Assembly (NCBI GenBank): GCA_964468795.1
Contig: CAYXWL010000001.1
Location: 232,246-296,245, forward strand
Direction: 5' to 3'
Length of the DNA stretch: 64,000 nt
DNA from: an uncultured Candidatus Saccharibacteria bacterium
GTDB lineage: Bacteria > Patescibacteriota > Minisyncoccia > Phycocordibacterales > DATDWN01
Under the pieces are notes generated by a model. That model had not been told where the DNA came from. It worked only from the letters and a program-made list of their open reading frames with translations, and did not search any database. How positions within the stretch are numbered: position 1 is the first letter of the stretch; each line of letters starts with the position of its first letter. Of this stretch, positions 9,577-19,544 are shown piece by piece. The position numbers and the translations under genes were made by a program.

Positions 9577-10134
9577 TTAAAAAGCCTTGAAGTTGCTTTT
9601 ATCCTGCAATATCCGATCCACCTCCTCATAGCCCTTAAGGTATGAAAAATTGTACCTTGCAGGAAGAGCAAAAACATAATTTGCATTTCTTCCGAGCTCA
9701 GAAGGATTCACGGGTGCTGCCCCAATATGGAATTTATCAGCTTTCATTTCGTTCCACTGATCAGTTGTAAATACCATGACTGGAATATCTTGTCGTGGAG
9801 TAGTAGTACTCCATTCTGGATGCCTTATTGAAATCATAGGGCCGGACACTGTTCCCAAAACCAGATTCCCCTTCGAGTTCAAGCTATCTCCAGACCACTT
9901 ATTTTCCACTACCGAGTACCCCGACCAGCTTTTCGGCACATCAATGCTAAATCCATACTTTTCATTTCGATATGTTATGGAATTTGAATTCTGAGTTGTT
10001 GTACCTGCTGATCCATTATTACCAGTAATAGTACCAGGAGACGGTATCTGCCTACTTCCTAAAAAGTAATACATTAGCCCGCCAACAAAAGCTACTGCAA
10101 TAATTATTACAGCTATTTTTGATGAATTTTTCAT
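9577..10134 (-). CDS. Secreted/membrane-anchored hypothetical protein (YRNEKYGF..P.SW family, paralogs at 44238 and 46129)
   Basis: N-terminal TM/signal; shared motif with two other ORFs in window. Confidence 0.5.
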   Translation of the reverse strand: MKNSSKIAVIIIAVAFVGGLMYYFLGSRQIPSPGTITGNNGSAGTTTQNSNSITYRNEKYGFSIDVPKSWSGYSVVENKWSGDSLNSKGNLVLGTVSGPMISIRHPEWSTTTPRQDIPVMVFTTDQWNEMKADKFHIGAAPVNPSELGRNANYVFALPARYNFSYLKGYEEVDRILQDKSNFKAF

Positions 10135-10646
10135 ATATTTAATTATACCACTTACTTTAAGCTACAACCTTAATATGAAAGAGAGATTAAGAGCATTGAA
10201 AAGTGTTTAGTATAGGGAGTAGGAAGTGCTACTTCCACATCTCAAAACTCGCCGTCGCTCGTTTTGGTAGTGTCAGTAGCTCGCGACCCATTCTGCTGAA
10301 TGGGTACACCGCTTCGTTTTTTGAATCCGCACGAAAGCTGTCCCACAGCTTTCTCCTAAAACCAAACTTCGTTAGATTTTCTCCTGCGGGCTAGTCGGGT
10401 TAAGTACCCGTGAGGTGAGACCCCATAAGGGTATTTTAGCACATTCTCCACTCTCAATTTGAGGTACTCGGGTCGGGGTCAAAAAGCCAAAAAATGCCAA
10501 AATTTTAATAAGCGAGATTTCTCAATAACTTTACAAAAAAGTAAATCTATTGTCTGGTATGTAAAATTAGGGTTTATCCACACCCTTACTATACTGCACA
10601 CGCTTGCCGTGTGTGGTATACTTTATCCATATTAAAAAATATAAAA

Positions 10647-10997
10647 ATGAAAATAAACAATAAATTAAATAATGTAATAAAAGATATTAGAGAAGATAAA
10701 AAAATGACACAAGAACAATTAGCAAAAGAGTCAAAATTAACAAGAGGATACATATCCCGCTTGGAAAATGGTGACTACCCTGAGGATTCACCTTCAATTA
10801 AGACATTGAAGAAAATCGCAGAAGGATTGAAGGAACCACTTGAGCTTCTACTCGCTAAAGCAGGTATTACTCAAGAGGATTACATCAATTCAGCAACACC
10901 CCAGACATTCTTTCGAGCACAATACAACTTGAATGAAAGTCAGATCCAGGCAGTCGAATCATTTATCCAGGGCGTTAAGAAACAAATTAAAAATTAA
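10647..10997 (+). CDS. XRE-family HTH transcriptional regulator
   Basis: MTQEQLAKESKLTRGYISRLENG helix-turn-helix; start taken at MKINNK. Confidence 0.8.
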   Translation: MKINNKLNNVIKDIREDKKMTQEQLAKESKLTRGYISRLENGDYPEDSPSIKTLKKIAEGLKEPLELLLAKAGITQEDYINSATPQTFFRAQYNLNESQIQAVESFIQGVKKQIKN

Positions 10998-11008
10998 CAA
11001 ACAAACAT

Positions 11009-11545
11009 ATGAGACCCTCTCCCGAATGGCAGGCCAAGGCCAAATACAAGGCAAATGCGATTTTAAAAGAGTACTTTGAGATTCATTCTCTAGTACTACC
11101 GATACCAATTCAAGATGTCATTGAATTTTACATGCAAGATGTAAATTTCATCACAAGCGATGACTACGATTTTCCAGAAGGCGTATCGGCATTGGCGAGA
11201 AGAGATATATCTATTGGGTGGATGGTTATTGTAAATGGAAATGAATGTAAGGAAAGACAGAGATTTTCTTCAGCTCACGAGTTTGGGCATATGGCTCTCA
11301 TGACGAACACCTCCAAAGAGGTACATTGTTCAACTGATAAAGGAAGTTGGGAAGAAAAACTCTGTGATATGTTTGCGGGGCATCTTCTCATGCCTGAAGC
11401 ATTTGTGAGGTCATACTACGAGCTTCACCCTTCTCCATACGTTGAGGATATTGCAAGAGCGTTTAAGGTTAGTCAGCAAGTCGCAGAAATTGAACTTGAG
11501 TATTTGGGACTTCCGGTAAAAAGCAAGTTTTCAGTTGAATTTTAA
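11009..11545 (+). CDS. ImmA/IrrE family metallo-endopeptidase
   Basis: HEFGHMAL (HExxH) motif; immediately follows XRE gene (ImmR/ImmA-like pair). Confidence 0.8.
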   Translation: MRPSPEWQAKAKYKANAILKEYFEIHSLVLPIPIQDVIEFYMQDVNFITSDDYDFPEGVSALARRDISIGWMVIVNGNECKERQRFSSAHEFGHMALMTNTSKEVHCSTDKGSWEEKLCDMFAGHLLMPEAFVRSYYELHPSPYVEDIARAFKVSQQVAEIELEYLGLPVKSKFSVEF

Positions 11546-11589
11546 TACATAAATTTTTTTATCAAAAATAGTTACTATACATTACATAT

Positions 11590-12873
11590 ATGATAACCAC
11601 AGGAAACAACATAAAAATAGAGCAAGTGAAAATATCGGAGTTAAGACCATCTGTATACAATCCGAGGAAATGGGATGATAAAATCATTTCCGATATGACC
11701 GAGAGTATCAATCGTTTCGGACTTTGCGACCCTCTCCTTGTAAATGGAGCACCGGAAAGAAAAAATATTCTCATCGGCGGTCACTTGAGACTGAAAGTCG
11801 CAACAAACTTAGGATTTACAGAAGTTCCAGTTGTGTATCTCAACATTCCAGACATTGAAAAAGAGAAGGAATTAAACTTGAGACTTAATAAAAATCTGGG
11901 CAACTGGGATGAGGAGTTACTTAAGGCATTTGATGTGGATTTACTCTTAGATGTTGGCTTTACGCCAGATGAATTGAACTTTCATTTTGATGATGTGCTT
12001 AGCATTACTGACGATGATTTCAATGTAAAAGAAGAACTGGAGAAAATCACTACTCCTACCACTAAACCAGGTGACCTATTTCAACTTGGAGATCACAGAT
12101 TACTTTGTGGAGACTCTCTCAAACCAGATGATGTGAAGAAACTCATGGGTTCTGAGAAAGCTCATATGATTTACTGTGATCCTCCATACAACATTGGACT
12201 TGATTATAGGAAAGGTATCGGGACAAAGGGAAAATATACTCAGGAGAAGTTGATAAATGACAGTAAGAAACTTGGTGAGTATGAAAAGTTTTTAGAAAAG
12301 TCTTTGCAAAATGCTTTAAGTGTAAGTAGAGAGAATGTTCATGTCTTCTACTGGTGTGATGAGAAATATGTCTGGCTTGTTCAGAAGCTATACAATCAAC
12401 ATGGAGTTACCAACAGACGTATTTGCTTTTGGATAAAGAACAATTTTGATCCAACACCGCAAGTTGCATTCAATAAAGTGATCGAGCCGTGTGTATATGG
12501 AACTCTTGGTAGTCCAAAACTCAATCCAAGTTTGCAGAATATATCCGAGATTCTAAACATGGATGTTAATTCCATCGGCTCATACGATGACATCATGTCT
12601 ATTGTCCAGATGTGGTTAGTCAAAAGAGACAACACACTTGAATACGAACATCCAACACAGAAACCAATCACTCTAAACGAAAAACCTATGAAGCGCTGCT
12701 CTTCCCCAGGAGAGATTATTCTCGACTTATTCGGCGGAAGCGGATCGACTTTAATCGCCGCAGAACAATTAAAGCGCCGTGCATTCCTAATGGAAATTGA
12801 TCCAACATTTTGCGATTTAATTATTAAACGATATGAACACTTCACAGGAAACCATGTCAAAAAACTCAACTAA
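11590..12873 (+). CDS. ParB-like N-terminal domain fused to beta-class N6A/N4C DNA methyltransferase
   Basis: N-term ISELRPSVYNPRKWD..(ParB/Srx fold); MTase motif IV MIYCDPPYN then motif I DLFGGSGSTLIAAEQ (permuted beta order). Confidence 0.8.
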   Translation: MITTGNNIKIEQVKISELRPSVYNPRKWDDKIISDMTESINRFGLCDPLLVNGAPERKNILIGGHLRLKVATNLGFTEVPVVYLNIPDIEKEKELNLRLNKNLGNWDEELLKAFDVDLLLDVGFTPDELNFHFDDVLSITDDDFNVKEELEKITTPTTKPGDLFQLGDHRLLCGDSLKPDDVKKLMGSEKAHMIYCDPPYNIGLDYRKGIGTKGKYTQEKLINDSKKLGEYEKFLEKSLQNALSVSRENVHVFYWCDEKYVWLVQKLYNQHGVTNRRICFWIKNNFDPTPQVAFNKVIEPCVYGTLGSPKLNPSLQNISEILNMDVNSIGSYDDIMSIVQMWLVKRDNTLEYEHPTQKPITLNEKPMKRCSSPGEIILDLFGGSGSTLIAAEQLKRRAFLMEIDPTFCDLIIKRYEHFTGNHVKKLN

Positions 12874-13621
12874 AATCTGGGAACTTGGAAATCATAGACT
12901 GCTTTTAGGTGACTCCACTCTAAAAGCAGATATCAATTTGCTTGTTGGTAAAGACAAGGCAAATCTTCTTTTAACTGACCCTCCATATGGAGTCGGATAT
13001 GTTGAAAACAAAGAAGAATTTCTGGAAGCAATCAATGGGAAAAGTAATCCTCAGAAATTTTCTTCCATAAAAGGAGACGGAATCAAAGAAGATTATTACG
13101 ATTTCTCTAAAAAGTGGCTTGGGATACTCAAACCGCATCTCGCAGATAAGAATTCCTTCTATATTTTCAATGGTGACGCAAAACTCAGAGAGTTCCTCAA
13201 TTCTTTGCACGATCTTAGTTACACTAAATCAGCTATTTTAATCTGGATCAAAAATCACGCAGTCATCGGTCGCAAAGACTATCACCCACAGCATGAACTC
13301 ATCATATACGGTTGGCTAGGCAAACATGAATTCTTTGGGAATAAGGGCAAAACTACTTTGTTTTATCCTAAACCCAACAAAAACAAACTTCACCCCACCA
13401 TGAAACCACCGATGCTTTTGCGTAGACTCATCTATCACAGCACAAAGCCCGGCGATGTTGTACTTGATCCGTTTGGTGGATCAGGTTCAACACTAATCGC
13501 TTGTGAGGAACTAGGTCGAAAATGTCTCATGATCGAGAGTGACGAGAAATATTGCGAGACAATCATTGAAAGATGGCAGAAACTTACAGGAAAAACTGCG
13601 AAGTTAATTAATCATGCGTAA
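12833..13621 (+). CDS. Beta-class N6A/N4C DNA methyltransferase (second, tandem; overlaps upstream gene by ~40 nt)
   Basis: LLLTDPPYGVGY then DPFGGSGSTLIACEE; shares HRLLxGDS motif with upstream MTase. Confidence 0.8.
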   Translation: MNTSQETMSKNSTKIWELGNHRLLLGDSTLKADINLLVGKDKANLLLTDPPYGVGYVENKEEFLEAINGKSNPQKFSSIKGDGIKEDYYDFSKKWLGILKPHLADKNSFYIFNGDAKLREFLNSLHDLSYTKSAILIWIKNHAVIGRKDYHPQHELIIYGWLGKHEFFGNKGKTTLFYPKPNKNKLHPTMKPPMLLRRLIYHSTKPGDVVLDPFGGSGSTLIACEELGRKCLMIESDEKYCETIIERWQKLTGKTAKLINHA

Positions 13622-13627
13622 GAAAAT

Positions 13628-14017
13628 ATGGACAATGATGCCGACAAATCACAAACAATTTCTGTCTATAAGCGACAAGAGTTCGAGTCGTATGTTCTTT
13701 GGAGATCTATGCCATCAATTCTCCGAGGCCAACCGAGACACGTCATTGAAAAACTTGGTGTCGATGATGAATTGGCTATGTCACTTTTGGAAATCAAAAA
13801 TCAAACAGAATTTGCCAAACGTTTCGGCATCAAAGACCTCGGCACACTTACAGAGTGGAATAAAAAGATTGAAAAAGAAGGAGGACTTCTCAAGCACATC
13901 AACTCTTGGGCACGAAAACTTACACCAAATGTTGTCTCTGCTTTGTATCGAGAAGCCACAAAGACTGGCAAAGCAGCCGAGGTGAAAGCATGGATGGAGA
14001 TAGTTGAAGGAATGTAA
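13628..14017 (+). CDS. Hypothetical protein (island gene)
   Basis: 129 aa ORF, no recognisable motif; overlapping alternative frame 13614..13985 judged spurious. Confidence 0.4.
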   Translation: MDNDADKSQTISVYKRQEFESYVLWRSMPSILRGQPRHVIEKLGVDDELAMSLLEIKNQTEFAKRFGIKDLGTLTEWNKKIEKEGGLLKHINSWARKLTPNVVSALYREATKTGKAAEVKAWMEIVEGM

Positions 14018-14026
14018 AACAAATAT

Positions 14027-14233
14027 ATGAACAATGAGAAAAAATATCTAACAACAGAAGAAGCAACCATTATCTTGTCGGAGGCTCTTCAAGATGTGGC
14101 TCAAAGAAAAACAACACTTAAGCGAGCCCTCGTAATTTCTCGTTTAGCTTTGGCCTTATCGAAAATGATTGAAGTAAATGACCTCAAAGATCGAGTCGAG
14201 TTTCTTGAACAGACCTTAAAGAAAAGAAAATAA
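14027..14233 (+). CDS. Small coiled-coil hypothetical protein
   Basis: 68 aa, tightly spaced with flanking genes. Confidence 0.3.
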   Translation: MNNEKKYLTTEEATIILSEALQDVAQRKTTLKRALVISRLALALSKMIEVNDLKDRVEFLEQTLKKRK

Positions 14234-14234
14234 T

Positions 14235-16073
14235 ATGAAACAAGTTACAAGCAACATGCTACTAAAAGGAAACCTTACTCCGACAGAGAAATTCATTCTC
14301 CTTATTCAAGATGAGGTAAATAGAATCAAAACTGGAAAAGAAATACTGACTCCTGCCGACAGAGATGCGTTAGAAAATTGGAAAGCACAGACTAATAAAG
14401 AAGCTCATGAGTGGAACAGATTAAATGATGGATTTAAACAGACAGCAAAGATGAACGTTGAAGTGGAGTTTACTTACAAAGATGCTCAAGTAGCATACCT
14501 GGCCCAACTACCAATTACTTCACAGCTTCTATTCTATCCATACTATAGGGAGATGCGAGGTTGTATTAAAACCCTCAAAAATATCAAGAAAGCAACTCCA
14601 AAAGAAGTAATGGAGGCCGCAGAAAAACAAAAACAAGTCAAACTAAAGGAAGGAATGGATTTTGACTATGCAATATATCAACTAGCTTTCGAACTTCTAT
14701 CTGAGAAAGACAAGAAACAAATGAAAGATCTGTATGAGGAAATAGAATATGAACACCAATATTTAGACCAAGAAGAAATCATCGCTAATTTGTTTAATGG
14801 GAAAGAAACTCTAACTCAGAAAGCTAAAGAAAAGCTAGCGACTCTTGTTGCTGAAAGAAGCTACAATGTATTTGCTAAAGAGTACCAGTTCTTCCATTAT
14901 TTTGCCTGTATCCCAATAGCTGAAGTAGCGCGATATTTCCTCAAATCCAAAGGAGTGGAAGTTAAAGGAAAAAATTTATCCAAAAATCAGGAATCAGATG
15001 ACGAGGACTCAGTTACGCATGATAAAATCGATGATGTTGTAAAGAAATATGCGCAAGAAAATAAAATTTCTGTTGAAACACTACTTAAAGAAGGGTGTTT
15101 ACAGTGGTTAGATGACGGGCTCTTGGATGAATACACCCCTCTTGTCATTAGCACTAGTGCAGAGTTATTTGAAAGATGGCTTAAGACAAAAGTAAAAGCT
15201 AAGAGTATTTTACTTAAACACATAGAGAATAAGGAATTAACTCTTAGAAAAAGAAGTGAAAACGAGACATTCAAACACAAACTGCGCAGTAAAGACTTAT
15301 ATGATATTGAGCTAAATGTCGCCCGAAAAGTACTAGAAAATCTTGATCTGGAACTGAGAGTAGAAAAAGCAGAAGGAGATGAAAGAGTTGCTTTTGAGGA
15401 ATTCAATGAATCAATAATTACAGGAGAAAGTTTGTATACCTTTAAAGGAGAATATGGATTTGTTAAGAAATTCAAAGAAAGAGCAGATGAATATGATGCC
15501 AACCTTGGTATTGTATATGCAGATGATGACCCAGAACATACAGGAGAGCACTTGGATCAAGAATTCATTGTCTGTAGCCAAAACGGTAAAGGTGACGCTA
15601 GCTTCTTTAGCTTGTATGGGATGTCAATTTCAATGCTCTCCTCTTTCTTTGATGGAAAACTGCTTTTCAAAGAAAAAGTTAAAGATAAGAAGACATATAT
15701 TGAATTCAAAGATCCAATGATAGAAGCAATTTTTAAAGAAAGAAGAAAACTAATGATTGATGGGTATGCAAAACTTCTAGCTTTTGAGAAACTTTTTAAG
15801 AAGCTGGGTAGGATATACCAATCAGATCTGGAGTGGAACGTCAGAGAAAGAATTAAAAGGATGAAAGAACATATTGATCAATTTAACGAAACGATTAGAG
15901 TGGCAACAAATACGAGTGAAGAAGAGAGAAAATATAAAGAAGGGATATTTAGGAGAAAGGAGGTTCTGTATTTCGAGGAAGAGCAAATAATCGACACAGA
16001 AAAGATCCTGCCAGATGAAACAGTGATTGAGGAATACAGAAAGAAATTTGAGGATTTGTTTGAGGAGTTTTGA
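14235..16073 (+). CDS. Large charged hypothetical protein (612 aa), function unknown
   Basis: Long ORF, K/E-rich, no motif recognised by eye; operonic with upstream genes. Confidence 0.5.
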   Translation: MKQVTSNMLLKGNLTPTEKFILLIQDEVNRIKTGKEILTPADRDALENWKAQTNKEAHEWNRLNDGFKQTAKMNVEVEFTYKDAQVAYLAQLPITSQLLFYPYYREMRGCIKTLKNIKKATPKEVMEAAEKQKQVKLKEGMDFDYAIYQLAFELLSEKDKKQMKDLYEEIEYEHQYLDQEEIIANLFNGKETLTQKAKEKLATLVAERSYNVFAKEYQFFHYFACIPIAEVARYFLKSKGVEVKGKNLSKNQESDDEDSVTHDKIDDVVKKYAQENKISVETLLKEGCLQWLDDGLLDEYTPLVISTSAELFERWLKTKVKAKSILLKHIENKELTLRKRSENETFKHKLRSKDLYDIELNVARKVLENLDLELRVEKAEGDERVAFEEFNESIITGESLYTFKGEYGFVKKFKERADEYDANLGIVYADDDPEHTGEHLDQEFIVCSQNGKGDASFFSLYGMSISMLSSFFDGKLLFKEKVKDKKTYIEFKDPMIEAIFKERRKLMIDGYAKLLAFEKLFKKLGRIYQSDLEWNVRERIKRMKEHIDQFNETIRVATNTSEEERKYKEGIFRRKEVLYFEEEQIIDTEKILPDETVIEEYRKKFEDLFEEF

Positions 16074-16115
16074 GAGGATTGATACATTACAAGGTAAGAG
16101 ATACTATATACATCA

Positions 16116-16508
16116 ATGAAAAAAGATTTTAAAAAGTGGCACACAAAGAAAGAGTTTCTGCACAATGAGAAGGATATTTCAAATATATTCTTCAAAGAGC
16201 GAGAAGTCTGGTGGGTAGCACTTGGAGCAAATATAGGATTTGAACAAGATGGTAAAGGTGAAGAGTTCAGAAGACCAGTTTTGATTTTGAAGAAGTTTAA
16301 CCAATTTGTACTCTTGACTGTGCCTCTCACTACCAAGATTAAGAAGAATAAATACTATGTTCCTCTTGATATTGGAGATGGAACACCACGTATGGCTATC
16401 ATTTCTCAAATAAGGCTTATAGATACGAAAAGACTTATCGACAAACTGGCAACTCTTGAAGAGGATTCTTTTACTCAAATCAAAAACGCAATCAAAGCTA
16501 TGCTCTAA
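16116..16508 (+). CDS. PemK/MazF-like toxin-fold protein (putative type II TA toxin / mRNA interferase)
   Basis: WWVALGANIGFEQDGKGEEFRRPVLIL...LTVPLTTK pattern resembles solitary MazF/PemK family; no obvious antitoxin. Confidence 0.5.
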   Translation: MKKDFKKWHTKKEFLHNEKDISNIFFKEREVWWVALGANIGFEQDGKGEEFRRPVLILKKFNQFVLLTVPLTTKIKKNKYYVPLDIGDGTPRMAIISQIRLIDTKRLIDKLATLEEDSFTQIKNAIKAML

Positions 16509-16628
16509 TTGCGTCTTTGCTTGTCTGCTCCCTTGCGAGAGCGAGCCCGAAGGCCATTTGTACCTACAGTATATATCGATTTAAGTGAAAGTCAAATGAA
16601 GTTATCTACAGTATAATATAAGAAAAAT

Positions 16629-17651
16629 ATGCAAATAAAATCCCAATTTGACCACAGAGGAAAAACTTACAAAGTTACATATACTGATGGAGTTCCGGAA
16701 GTAGAAAATCTTGAAACTCAAGATGGTGTTCATTCGTATTGTTTCTATGGAGATAAATTAGTTATCGTTGGACATGGAGCAGACAACAATTGGACTCCTC
16801 CAGGTGGAGCTATCGAAAAAGGAGAAACTTACACTGAAGCAGCTATACGAGAAATCAAGGAAGAATCAAATATGAAAGTCCTTCATATTGAATGTATTGG
16901 ATATCAAGATGTAGAAGTATCATACGGTACTGGAATGGTTAGACAATTCAGAATGATGGCTATTGTTAAACCATATGGAGAATTTGAAAAAGACCCAGAT
17001 GGAGATATTTTGGAGATAAAGCTGATTGATCCAAAAGATTACAAAGAATATATAAAATGGGGAGAGATCGGAGATTACTTAATGAAAAGAGCCTTGGAGA
17101 TGAAGGAGTATAACTTTGAAGATGTCACCAAAGATGCAGTTGTAAATCCAATTGAACTAGCAAAAAGATTTGCGAGTAAAAAGTTTGCAGAGATACAAAC
17201 AGGAAATCACTTTCTAGATGTATATAGAATTCTTAAAGAAGAGTTTGGGGTTAATGATGAAGAAGTTTTAATCGCTGGACTATTGCACGATACACTTGAA
17301 GATACTTCTGCTACATATGATCAAATTGAAAGAATTTTTGGGAAGAGAGTTGCGGATTTAGTAGAGGAAGTGTCTCATCCAAAAAATTACAATAATGAAC
17401 AGAAGAAAGAATACTATGAGAAACTAAAGCATATTTCTGATGGAGGGAAAATGATAAAACTAGCTGATTTTAAATCACACTTAGTTAATTTCATCGGAGC
17501 TTTTACAGGAAAAAACAATTTGAAGAAATTTACATACACAGAGTACACAGATAATATTCTTAGTTTTCTAGAAAATTATCCTGAATCAGCAGCAAAAAAT
17601 ACTGTATATAATTTATCAAAAGAGTTAGAAGGTCATATTTTAGGAAAATAG
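16629..17651 (+). CDS. Nudix hydrolase fused to HD-domain (RelA/SpoT-type (p)ppGpp hydrolase-like) protein
   Basis: Nudix box GGAIEKGETYTEAAIREIKEESN; C-terminal LLHDTLEDTSATYDQIERIFGKRVADLVEEVSH = HDxxED hydrolase motif. Confidence 0.75.
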   Translation: MQIKSQFDHRGKTYKVTYTDGVPEVENLETQDGVHSYCFYGDKLVIVGHGADNNWTPPGGAIEKGETYTEAAIREIKEESNMKVLHIECIGYQDVEVSYGTGMVRQFRMMAIVKPYGEFEKDPDGDILEIKLIDPKDYKEYIKWGEIGDYLMKRALEMKEYNFEDVTKDAVVNPIELAKRFASKKFAEIQTGNHFLDVYRILKEEFGVNDEEVLIAGLLHDTLEDTSATYDQIERIFGKRVADLVEEVSHPKNYNNEQKKEYYEKLKHISDGGKMIKLADFKSHLVNFIGAFTGKNNLKKFTYTEYTDNILSFLENYPESAAKNTVYNLSKELEGHILGK

Positions 17652-17652
17652 T

Positions 17653-18414
17653 ATGAAATTAATTACCTTAAATGCGTGGGGTGGAAAAATATATGAACCA
17701 CTCATTTCTTTCCTTAAGGAACACTCAAAAGATGTGGATATTTTTTGCTTTCAAGATGTATTATTCGGGTCAAAACCAGAGTTTACTCCAATTCAAAAAG
17801 GAAGAGTAAACTTATTTTCAGAAATTGAAAATATTTTAAGTGATTTTAATTCATTTATCTTTAGAGATAAAAATGAGTCATTTATTCATGGCGAGATGTT
17901 GCCTCTCGAGGTGGGGTGCGGGCAAGCTATTTTTGTAAGAAAAAATTTAAAAGTTCTAGATAACGGCGCATTTCGTGCTTTAGACAGAGAAACAGACGAT
18001 GACATTGCTCCTGGAAGATGCCAGTGGATTAAAATTAAATTACATAACGAAGAAAACCTGGTTGTTATGAATTTACATGGAATGTGGCAAAAAGGTTCTC
18101 AAAAGAAAGACACTCCAGAAAGAATAGTACAATCACAAAAAGTTAAGGAGTTTTTCTCTCAACACAATTCCAAGCAAATAATATGTGGTGATTTTAATAT
18201 GGTAAAAGATGGGAATGCAATGAGTATGTTGGAAGAAGGAATGGTAAATTTAGTGAAAGAATACGGCATTCAATCAACCCGAAGCAGCCATTACCCAAAA
18301 GAAGAAAAATTTGCAGACTATATACTCGTATCAAAAGATATAAAAGTAAATGATTTTAAAGTTTTGCAGAATGAGGTATCAGACCATTTGCCTTTATTTG
18401 TGGATTTTGAATAA
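17653..18414 (+). CDS. Endonuclease/exonuclease/phosphatase (EEP, DNase I-like) family protein
   Basis: MKLITLNAWGG...CFQDV...CGDFNM...SDHLPLFVDFE conserved EEP motifs. Confidence 0.75.
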   Translation: MKLITLNAWGGKIYEPLISFLKEHSKDVDIFCFQDVLFGSKPEFTPIQKGRVNLFSEIENILSDFNSFIFRDKNESFIHGEMLPLEVGCGQAIFVRKNLKVLDNGAFRALDRETDDDIAPGRCQWIKIKLHNEENLVVMNLHGMWQKGSQKKDTPERIVQSQKVKEFFSQHNSKQIICGDFNMVKDGNAMSMLEEGMVNLVKEYGIQSTRSSHYPKEEKFADYILVSKDIKVNDFKVLQNEVSDHLPLFVDFE

Positions 18415-18416
18415 AG

Positions 18417-18446
18417 AAAAGCACCACGATTTTTTGTGGTGCTGGA
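18417..18446 (+). terminator. Rho-independent terminator after EEP gene (GCACCAC-loop-GUGGUGC, T-run in loop/after)
   Basis: aaagcaccacgattttttgtggtgctgg directly after stop; marks left edge of GC-rich element. Confidence 0.5.
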
Positions 18447-18704
18447 AGTGGTGTGCAGTCCAGATCTTTAGCATTGCGAGCGTTGGCCACCTCCTTGGTT
18501 TTCAACTTAGCCGCTCGCGTAGCGATCTGGTTACGGCTTGTGCCGTCATCCGTTCCCACTTAGGGAACGACTCAATTAGTCCTCTGGCCTCTGCACATGC
18601 CTGGACCGCGATATGTTGGGAACTCCATGCAACATGAGTGCGCACTCCGCCTTTGTTACAGCGCCCTCCGCTAGAGGGTAACGTGCCGTCTTCATGGTGG
18701 AGCT

Positions 18705-18772
18705 CCCATCAAAAGTTTCAAATTATTTTAAAATCTTTGATGGGAGGGCGAACAAATTTCGTTGCTCACCCA
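18705..18772 (-). promoter_or_regulatory. X-type UTR module copy a (CCCAUCAAAAG..CUUUGAUGGGA palindrome + GC hairpin)
   Basis: cccatcaaaag-N22-ctttgatggga-gggcgaacaaatttcgttgctcaccc; upstream of possible 40-aa mini-ORF. Confidence 0.5.
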
Positions 18773-18885
18773 TTGCACTGCGGTCTCGCCCTGCCTTATC
18801 AGCAAACGAAGTGTCTAGCTTCGTTGCTCGCTTAAGTCATTTCTGACATCAGCGAATTCGCGCAGGATCCCCGCTCAAGTTTGTG

Positions 18886-19386
18886 CTAACTCAGTCGACC
18901 CAATAAGGTTTGCCCTGTCGATACCAATCTGGCGTATGACCACCACTGACTGTAATCAGTGAGGATTTCCATACGCCAATGGCTGTCGACTCTGCCGGGA
19001 ATGGGCGGACACAATTCGATGAACGGAGATTGCTGATTGCGCAACTCCTCGTCCCTCGAAACGCGCCTCGCACACACCGGCAAAGTGACACCACTCGCAT
19101 CTTTGACGAATGCGACATTGGCACTGAGCCTCGACGAAAGTTTCCCACTGCATACTCGACCGTCTTTCTTTGGCGCAAGTAAGTTGAGAAAACTGTCGAT
19201 CGAGATAGGGCGATACCTCGTCAGGATCCGCTGCGCGTCGACGTATGTCCCGAGGTCCCAGAGAAGCAAATTGCTCTTCTCTTCGTTCCGGCGCACTTCC
19301 ATATTGCTAAAGTGACGCTCGAAAGTCTCACAAACCTCGAGGACGTTGACACTCACAAGGCGATCCCGAACGATGTAGTTTTCCAT
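18886..19386 (-). CDS. Hypothetical protein (GC-rich element)
   Basis: Start at MENYIVRDRL preceded by AAAGGAGGG SD; 166 aa; no motif recognised. Confidence 0.5.
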   Translation of the reverse strand: MENYIVRDRLVSVNVLEVCETFERHFSNMEVRRNEEKSNLLLWDLGTYVDAQRILTRYRPISIDSFLNLLAPKKDGRVCSGKLSSRLSANVAFVKDASGVTLPVCARRVSRDEELRNQQSPFIELCPPIPGRVDSHWRMEILTDYSQWWSYARLVSTGQTLLGRLS

Positions 19387-19454
19387 GAGCCCTCCTTTGG
19401 GCAAAATACAGACTATTTTTAAAGAACTTTGGAACAATTTTGTTCCTTCAGAAT

Positions 19455-19500
19455 ACTTAACCTAGGTTAAACCCTCTGAAGGAAGTCCGAGGATATATGA
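19455..19500 (-). promoter_or_regulatory. Y-type structured module (CGUCCGAGGAAGUC..GACUUCCUCGGACG alternative hairpins), copy 1
   Basis: ggaagtccgaggatatatgacttcctcggacg; near-identical inverted copy at 26186-26232. Confidence 0.5.
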
Positions 19501-19544
19501 CTTCCTCGGACGATACCGGGCTGACGCGCCGATAGACGTTATTG

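Follow-up and report, generated by a model that had tools for sequence, protein, structure and literature searches.

What holds together a row of seven genes in which a helix-turn-helix (HTH) regulator of the XRE family and an M78 metalloprotease precede two overlapping DNA methyltransferase genes and the genes of three further proteins, here called p129, p68 and p612? The row lies in a 64,000-nt stretch of DNA (the window) of contig CAYXWL010000001.1 (assembly GCA_964468795.1, positions 232,246 to 296,245 of the forward strand) from an uncultured Candidatus Saccharibacteria bacterium. An earlier reading of the letters alone, the original prediction, had described it as a mobile or defence-like island with an ImmR/ImmA-type pair and orphan methyltransferases. 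Open reading frames (ORFs), domain searches and motif positions place every feature of that description where it had been put. Our analysis shows that the seven genes are the conserved backbone of a family of Patescibacteria elements and not loose cargo. The mobile part of the description holds, as relatives lack the island, while the defence part applies only to variable cargo at related loci. The extent given for the island, 10611-18446 (7.8 kb), was too small: over its length of about 23.6 kb it also carries a large serine recombinase, a retroelement and, within a GC-rich block, hammerhead ribozymes (Table 1).

To compare the locus with its relatives, we located these through ComF at about 60% identity. 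In them the pilus operon, PilM and ComF are kept and tRNA-Ser(GCT) comes next, either at once or behind a homologue of the 185-aa gene p185; past the tRNA they carry homologues of the genes that the window has at 37.4 and 40.4 kb. The p185 gene of the window ends at 10134, and about 23.6 kb (from about 10.2 kb to 33,792) are inserted beside the 3' end of tRNA-Ser(GCT). Three relatives (L041, L060 and L062) have empty sites, in which ComF, p185 where present, and tRNA-Ser(GCT) are adjacent and no island is found. Nucleotide homology to the island-free L041 restarts exactly at 33793, the encoded CCA end of the tRNA; on the left side, a weak host-type similarity to L041 stops at 10167. Since relatives lack the segment at this locus and homology restarts at 33793, we conclude that it is a mobile island of about 23.6 kb, which was most likely inserted by the large serine recombinase. 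Near the right junction, a 20-nt direct repeat (33867-33886 and 34044-34063, 177 nt apart) copies the 5' end of tRNA-Ser(GCT). It was ruled out as an attachment site, as it is present in island-free L041 too, and is an older feature of the locus, unrelated to the island and possibly left over from a tRNA. Relatives have a second tRNA-Ser close by, and ARAGORN finds none such in the window.

The seven core genes are separated by 11, 44, -41, 6, 9 and 1 nt, counted from the gap between the XRE and M78 genes to the single nucleotide between the p68 stop codon and the p612 start, in keeping with one operon with translational coupling. The genes of the ParB-methyltransferase, the second methyltransferase, p129, p68 and p612 are found in strict colinearity at about 25 further loci of various Patescibacteria lineages. 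Their order is kept in every locus with enough sequence, even in L118, a distant version (496 aa), and an arrangement that recurs in about 25 independent loci is not due to chance. The genes flanking this cassette differ at every locus. Most loci have a ParB-methyltransferase that is 74-80% identical to the window protein (47-49% in L019 and L028) and a p129 that is about 80% identical; the second methyltransferase reaches about 68% and p612 about 50-58%. These values are far above that of the host marker PilM (24%, L001 contig), and hence the cassette has spread horizontally. The XRE and M78 pair lies upstream of the core in most loci; in four (L001, L017, L020 and L026) it is inverted, and the HTH partner comes from a different, non-homologous cluster.

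Orthologues of the serine recombinase, 58-66% identical to that of the window, lie next to the cassette in nine other distinct loci, and identities among nine cassette loci, the window included, range from 55 to 82%. In 10 loci the recombinase gene is 0.15-13 kb from the cassette, usually downstream and on the same strand, and upstream in L035. More distant serine recombinases occur with the core in L005 and with a distant p612 homologue in L031. Other neighbours vary. Retroelement genes are often present as well, at about nine of the loci, and p612 is followed by a type ISP restriction enzyme (L009), a complete type I system (L026), GmrSD with an EcoRI-type methylase (L003, type IV), a ResIII helicase (L010 and L028) or AAA_5 and VWA genes (L001 and L018). 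The types of module found here are each known. A search of the full-text literature returned no description of the p129/p68/p612 cassette combination, and its fixed association with the other core genes as a Patescibacteria backbone is apparently undescribed.

Both methyltransferases belong to the beta class because the DPPY motif (motif IV; residues 197-200 in the first and 49-52 in the second) precedes FGGSG (motif I; residues 381-385 and 214-218). They score 85.5 and 116.8 bits against a PF01555 cut-off of 26.7 bits and share an HRLLxGDS block (HRLLCGDS and HRLLLGDS). As predicted, the first carries an N-terminal ParB domain. It matches phrog_498 over its full length (residues 5-424, E 1e-100) and 598 phage records at about 33% identity, and its closest solved relatives are Spo0J/ParB, DpnA and RsrI. 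The second has a near-full-length match to DpnA (E 1e-12) and also matches CcrM. Beta-class methyltransferases with DPPY are usually tied to adenine methylation. Neither the island nor the conserved core showed a recognisable restriction endonuclease domain, in line with the original prediction; its term orphan methylases fits to that extent, but plain orphans are not established, as the two enzymes always travel with p129, p68 and p612. Protection of the element DNA is the simplest reading of a conserved core that lacks an endonuclease.

The three proteins that follow have practically no family matches, as had been predicted of a charged 612-aa protein and two small companions. None of them matches Pfam, PADLOC or NCBIfam; in PHROGs, p129 and p68 are without a match and p612 has a single marginal one (phrog_15167, E 0.0086). 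p129 is probably an HTH DNA binder. We considered whether p129 is related to TerS or to c13, the small protein preceding distant p612 genes, and rejected both, as hhalign profile comparisons gave no signal with either of the two phage TerS proteins tried or with c13. p612 has a pI of 5.4 and 36% charged residues, and its AlphaFold2 model (mean confidence score pLDDT 84) is predicted to be mostly helical. None of its 289 close homologues has a precomputed Pfam domain, and those with a name are labelled hypothetical and come from Patescibacteria lineages (Paceibacterota, Minisyncoccia, Yanofsky-, Adler- and Taylorbacteria). Among 1.84 billion representative proteins, a profile search recovered only 233 clusters. 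The libraries searched, phage and plasmid collections included, hold no informative sequence or fold relative, and relatives are absent from IMG/VR (2.9 million contigs), GenBank phages (50,697 records) and PLSDB. A Toprim domain in p612 was rejected: weak TOP6A-Spo11_Toprim matches (7 of 55 members, best E 0.05) fall in the N-terminal helices 11-80, where DUF4880 also matches weakly in 23 of the 55 members (best E 7e-4), and the acidic motif region (375-500) gives no match and has no conserved DxD.

Distant homologues place p612 in a different company. In L031 the order is Prim-Pol/PriCT, a 102-aa ORF, c13, p612, a 63-aa ORF and a serine recombinase, and in L032 it is ParA, a ribbon-helix-helix protein, c13 and p612. 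L121 has a 129-aa ORF without Pfam match at the position of the ribbon-helix-helix gene of L032. MerR, ParA, a small ORF, p612 and a 332-aa ORF follow each other in L123, and HTH_17, c13, p612, a 336-aa ORF, DnaG primase and a DnaB-like helicase in L120. L029 is a contig of 10,212 nt whose 55-nt terminal overlap implies a circle of about 10.16 kb. Its genes, all on one strand, encode a p612 homologue (44% identity), a primase, a Fic protein, a tyrosine integrase and excisionase-like proteins, and virion genes are absent. The contig was binned in a metagenome-assembled genome (MAG) of Planctomycetia, probably by mis-binning. p612 is thus a signature protein of the element family, and it marks plasmid-like and integrative elements within their replication and partition region. 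The position of its homologues beside replication and partition genes therefore points to a role in element maintenance, and from these neighbourhoods we infer that p129, p68 and p612 may maintain or replicate the element.

The regulator pair at the head of the operon is of the ImmR/ImmA type, as predicted, with HTH_3 and Peptidase_M78 domains and an HEFGH motif in the protease (residues 90-94, nt 11276-11290). It also matches the PADLOC models CapH and CapP, which overlap the generic XRE and M78 families. The XRE reading frame (10611-10997) opens at a GTG at 10611, and its likely start is the ATG at 10647, according to gene callers and the alignment with relatives. The spacer in front of it (10135-10646) is non-coding; it had been described as rich in hairpins, and we found moderate structure that folds better than shuffled controls (z -2.4 and -2.9). 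Within it, a block of about 120 nt, block A, ends in two GCCAAA repeats 11 nt apart and was detected by nhmmer upstream of the cassette, always on the cassette strand, in at least 14 loci. We rejected block A as a structured RNA, since RNAalifold gives no consensus fold (only 4 pairs) and Rfam no match, and, given that L035 and L005 have their recombinase on its upstream side, also as an attachment site. Between block A and the regulator gene, the sequence TTATCCACA at 10574-10582 is identical to the DnaA-box consensus, a palindrome CACACG..CGTGTG (10597-10615) adjoins a TATACT -10 element (10617-10622), and TTATCCATA at 10623-10631 is a further near-match. Block A could represent operator sites or an origin-like region, and the data do not favour either.

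We lean, with little more than even confidence, towards reading the seven genes as the backbone operon of a serine-recombinase island that combines an ImmR/ImmA-like switch, protective methylation and a maintenance module made of p129, p68 and p612. In such an operon, the XRE repressor would bind the palindrome at its own promoter and hold expression low. By analogy with ImmR/ImmA and CapH/CapP, a signal would lead the M78 protease to inactivate the repressor. The de-repressed operon would then yield both beta-class methyltransferases, which would mark the DNA of element and host, and these marks may shield the element from restriction in its present or a new host, including the restriction systems carried as cargo by its own family. 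The tightly coupled p129 (the probable HTH protein), p68 and p612 would act on element DNA, either in the initiation of replication or in maintaining the excised circle, with block A, its GCCAAA repeats and the DnaA-box region as candidate sites of action. More tentatively, and with well under even confidence, the five core genes could define an undescribed type of Patescibacteria-specific integrative, plasmid-like elements, in which p612, a protein without fold relatives, would be a new replication or maintenance factor working with a small HTH partner at a conserved origin-like region. They would shuttle restriction systems, retroelements (some with a repeat-tract switch in the reverse transcriptase) and hammerhead-processed gene clusters between ultra-small hosts for which no conjugation machinery is known.

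Several observations weigh against the backbone-operon reading. The backbone of the main family lacks primase and helicase genes: neither these nor an initiator or ParA can be recognised in its cassette. They are present only beside distant p612 homologues, and the ParB_N domain of the cassette is fused to a methyltransferase. At several loci no recombinase is seen within 10 kb, and the pairwise divergence of recombinase and p612 is weakly correlated (Mantel r 0.37, p 0.03), with no significant co-divergence by Spearman. The attachment sites of the island were not found. No att-like direct repeats, for which a search had been suggested, were found to flank the island, and no repeat of the tRNA end was seen at the left junction; flanking repeats are not expected of serine recombinases. 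On the left, the junction can be placed only within about 200 nt, and no circular form of the island was observed, the only circular relative being the distant L029. The methylases are, moreover, constantly linked to three proteins of no recognised family, which is how a methylation-based defence would look. Such a self-contained system against phages and plasmids, in which the methyltransferases mark self and p129, p68 and p612 sense and attack unmodified DNA, is to us rather improbable. It would use XRE and M78 as a CapH/CapP-type pair that raises expression upon DNA damage, with the recombinase-borne island as carrier. The matches to CapH and CapP, the translational coupling of the methylases to the three proteins, and the known defence systems in the neighbouring cargo of relatives, a hallmark of defence islands, agree with it, and two methyltransferases per operon are typical of restriction systems with asymmetric sites. 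However, neither sequence nor fold reveals a nuclease, ATPase or other effector domain in p129, p68 or p612, and the p612 family also occurs without a methyltransferase, between ParA and primase, helicase or Prim-Pol genes and on a small circular element. Across the islands, the cassette is what stays constant and the known defence systems are what varies, and the ParB-methyltransferase is unusually conserved in most loci, unlike the diversifying specificity of restriction-modification systems.

The phage matches of the ParB-methyltransferase raise a different possibility, namely that the operon serves a phage satellite or cryptic prophage as its regulatory and DNA-packaging front end, with p129 as a small terminase-like HTH protein and p612 as a large packaging or morphogenesis protein that exploits a helper phage. 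In phages, the ParB-methyltransferase gene lies directly 5' of terS, terL and portal genes, which is not so in the window; p129 occupies the terS position and looks HTH-like, and the size of the island, its repressor/protease switch and its integrase would fit satellites. We regard this as quite unlikely, as p612 is neither a terminase nor a portal protein by sequence or fold, p129 did not resemble the phage TerS proteins compared with it, the viral collections hold no relative of p612, and capsid, tail and terminase genes are absent from the islands examined. Least probable, and hardly credible to us, is that these are ordinary chromosomal housekeeping or epigenetic core genes of the lineage. 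The p612 family is widespread in Patescibacteria and its MAG members are always labelled as hypothetical proteins. The presence of the island in all relatives at the same locus would have spoken for core genes; instead the empty sites lack the whole 23.6 kb, flanking genes vary from locus to locus, the cassette is 75% identical where the host marker is 24% identical, and recombinases adjoin it.

Table 1. Position, strand and supporting evidence of the features of the island and its junctions in the window.
Feature	Position	Strand	Basis or remark
Interval with left junction of island	10168..10385		L041 similarity ends at 10167; element-specific block begins at 10385
Non-coding block A, ends in two GCCAAA repeats	10385..10505	+	nhmmer
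XRE promoter/operator region	10574..10631	+	Motifs kept in 11 aligned loci
XRE-family HTH regulator	10647..10997	+	HTH_3 E 1.7e-16; PADLOC CapH E 6.1e-12; PHROG repressor families
M78 (ImmA/IrrE-type) metalloprotease	11009..11545	+	Peptidase_M78 E 6.8e-14; PADLOC CapP E 5.8e-17
ParB_N + beta-class N6_N4 DNA methyltransferase fusion	11590..12873	+	Pfam ParB_N E 4.7e-9, N6_N4_Mtase E 6.7e-24
Second beta-class DNA methyltransferase	12833..13621	+	N6_N4_Mtase E 1.8e-33
p129, family-specific small helical protein	13628..14017	+	No family match
p68, small basic helical protein	14027..14233	+	Kept position; 50-77% identity across loci
p612, 612 residues	14235..16073	+	Homologue and neighbourhood analysis
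MazF/PemK toxin	16116..16508	+	Pfam
NUDIX+HD fusion	16629..17651	+	Pfam
EEP-family protein	17653..18414	+	Pfam
Cargo with two GC-rich (45-53%) blocks, small orphan ORFs and repeated hairpins	18500..28000		Composition, repeats
Three type III hammerhead ribozymes	20422-20476, 21314-21368, 22031-22085	-	Rfam RF00008
TrmB	23653-24393		Pfam; between GC-rich blocks
DUF6624	24482-24979		Pfam; between GC-rich blocks
Large serine recombinase	29426..30757	+	Resolvase E 1.5e-20, Recombinase E 2.2e-12, Zn_ribbon_recom E 4.9e-10
Diversity-generating retroelement	30849..33719		RVT_1, repeat comparison
Retroelement target gene, GC-rich	30849-31784	-	Variable repeat 30855-30972 at its 3' end
Retroelement template repeat	32114-32231	+	Paired with variable repeat
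Retroelement ORF	32278-32628	-
Reverse transcriptase	32629-33719	+	RVT_1; split at (GA)10 tract 33185-33204
tRNA-Ser(GCT), right island junction at its 3' end	33793..33883	-	ARAGORN, Rfam

Downstream of the backbone, the interval of the original prediction also holds three genes that it had not named, encoding a MazF/PemK toxin, a NUDIX+HD fusion and an EEP-family protein. Other loci do not keep this cargo (16116..18414) at the position, except for MazF in L035. The MazF/PemK gene comes right after p612, and an antitoxin gene is recognisable neither before nor behind it, the gaps being 42 and 120 nt; L035 shows the same arrangement. The ORF-poor region beyond, at 18.5-28 kb, contains small orphan ORFs, among them one of 182 aa with only 2 homologues. 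Recoding of stop codons was rejected, as reading TGA, TAG or TAA as sense gives no long ORFs, and so was an rRNA or other large known RNA, since Rfam finds hammerheads only. The three hammerheads score 41-44 bits (E 3e-7 to 2e-6), just below the gathering score of 48.5. Their cores are canonical (CUGAnGAG...CGAAAC; cleavage triplet GUC), and compensatory changes are seen in stems I and II. Distances of 892 and 717 nt separate them, and they lie between small orphan ORFs, in a block of 50% GC within a 37%-GC genome. A fourth was found in L012 (7390-7433, minus strand), downstream of the p612 cassette, and none in the other roughly 115 loci; the full-text literature searched does not describe hammerheads in Patescibacteria. 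Long hairpins (TCCCATCAAAG...CTTTGATGGGA, often followed by GGGCGAAC) occur at 18704-18753, 22389-22460, 25685-25733, 26545-26593 and 27167-27220, and an inverted repeat pair of roughly 100 nt (19439-19538 and 26169-26269) is 84-95% complementary. The hairpin family and the inverted repeat link the two GC-rich blocks around TrmB and DUF6624 and have no Rfam match.

Between the recombinase and the tRNA lies a diversity-generating retroelement. Its template and variable repeats differ mainly at template adenines (15 of 16 mismatches), and apart from the split reverse transcriptase gene it looks intact. At the position of the (GA)10 tract that splits this gene, L019 has (GA)13 (17380-17405) and L020 has C12(TC)14 (around 12560-12600, minus strand), both out of frame. 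A change of one repeat unit restores an ORF of 360-379 residues in the window, L019 and L020, and five related reverse transcriptases have no repeat at this position and are intact. The pattern suggests that the (GA)n tract may act by slipped-strand mispairing as an on/off switch (phase variation) of the hypermutation enzyme. An assembly error at the repeats is a possible alternative explanation of the frameshift. We found no description of repeat-tract switching of a retroelement reverse transcriptase in the full-text literature searched.

Little is known of the mobile elements of the Candidate Phyla Radiation, whose members have tiny genomes and no recognised conjugation systems. A widespread and sharply conserved element backbone that moves between distant lineages, along with restriction systems and hypermutation cassettes, offers a handle on how ultra-small bacteria exchange and protect DNA. 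It provides a defined five-gene unit, including a 600-residue protein without known relative, that is open to laboratory tests. Its methylation motif should be detectable in long-read metagenomes and could link elements to hosts. If the cassette were a defence system, it would be a new system with a new effector.

How does this backbone compare with known systems? As in ICEBs1 and in prophages with an ImmR/ImmA pair, adjacent genes for an XRE-family HTH protein and an M78 protease with an HExxH motif head a conserved operon of a mobile island, and a palindrome adjoins the -10 element. Unlike there, the pair lies about 18 kb from the integrase, the operon has no conjugation module, and some loci have the pair inverted with a non-homologous HTH partner; cleavage of the repressor and induction would follow here by analogy. 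The pair also resembles CapH/CapP of cyclic-oligonucleotide-based anti-phage signalling systems (CBASS) and other defence operons in matching their PADLOC models, but no recognised defence operon follows it, and only generic methyltransferase models match downstream. Phage ParB-methyltransferases (phrog_498, for example in Streptococcus phage Javan100 and Faecalibacterium phage FP_Epona) have the same two-domain architecture and stand at the start of an operon. The Patescibacteria proteins differ from these phage versions in forming a tight clade, and they precede a second methyltransferase and p129, p68 and p612 instead of packaging genes.

The staphylococcal cassette chromosome element SCCmec likewise combines a conserved backbone with variable cargo at a fixed site, and its CcrB is the best named relative of the recombinase in NCBIfam (E 1e-37), at a score far under the cut-off of the CcrB family (130 against 900 bits). 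It differs from the island in its host phylum, in its target (orfX/rlmH, and not tRNA-Ser) and in its unrelated backbone genes. SCC elements have their own replication genes beside the recombinase, whereas no helicase or polymerase is recognisable here. Type II and IIS restriction-modification systems with two methyltransferases share with the island two adjacent beta-class genes in one operon; in the island, however, the core has no detected endonuclease domain, one methylase is fused to ParB, and the unit is the constant backbone of an element. DpnA, the second methylase of DpnII, and CcrM are also of the beta class, and the second methyltransferase can be aligned with DpnA almost from end to end, a similarity at the level of the family, but unlike in DpnII no cognate endonuclease accompanies it. 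DpnA methylates incoming single-stranded DNA and thereby lets foreign islands establish after natural transformation, and for Patescibacteria that are naturally competent this role is a suggestive parallel.

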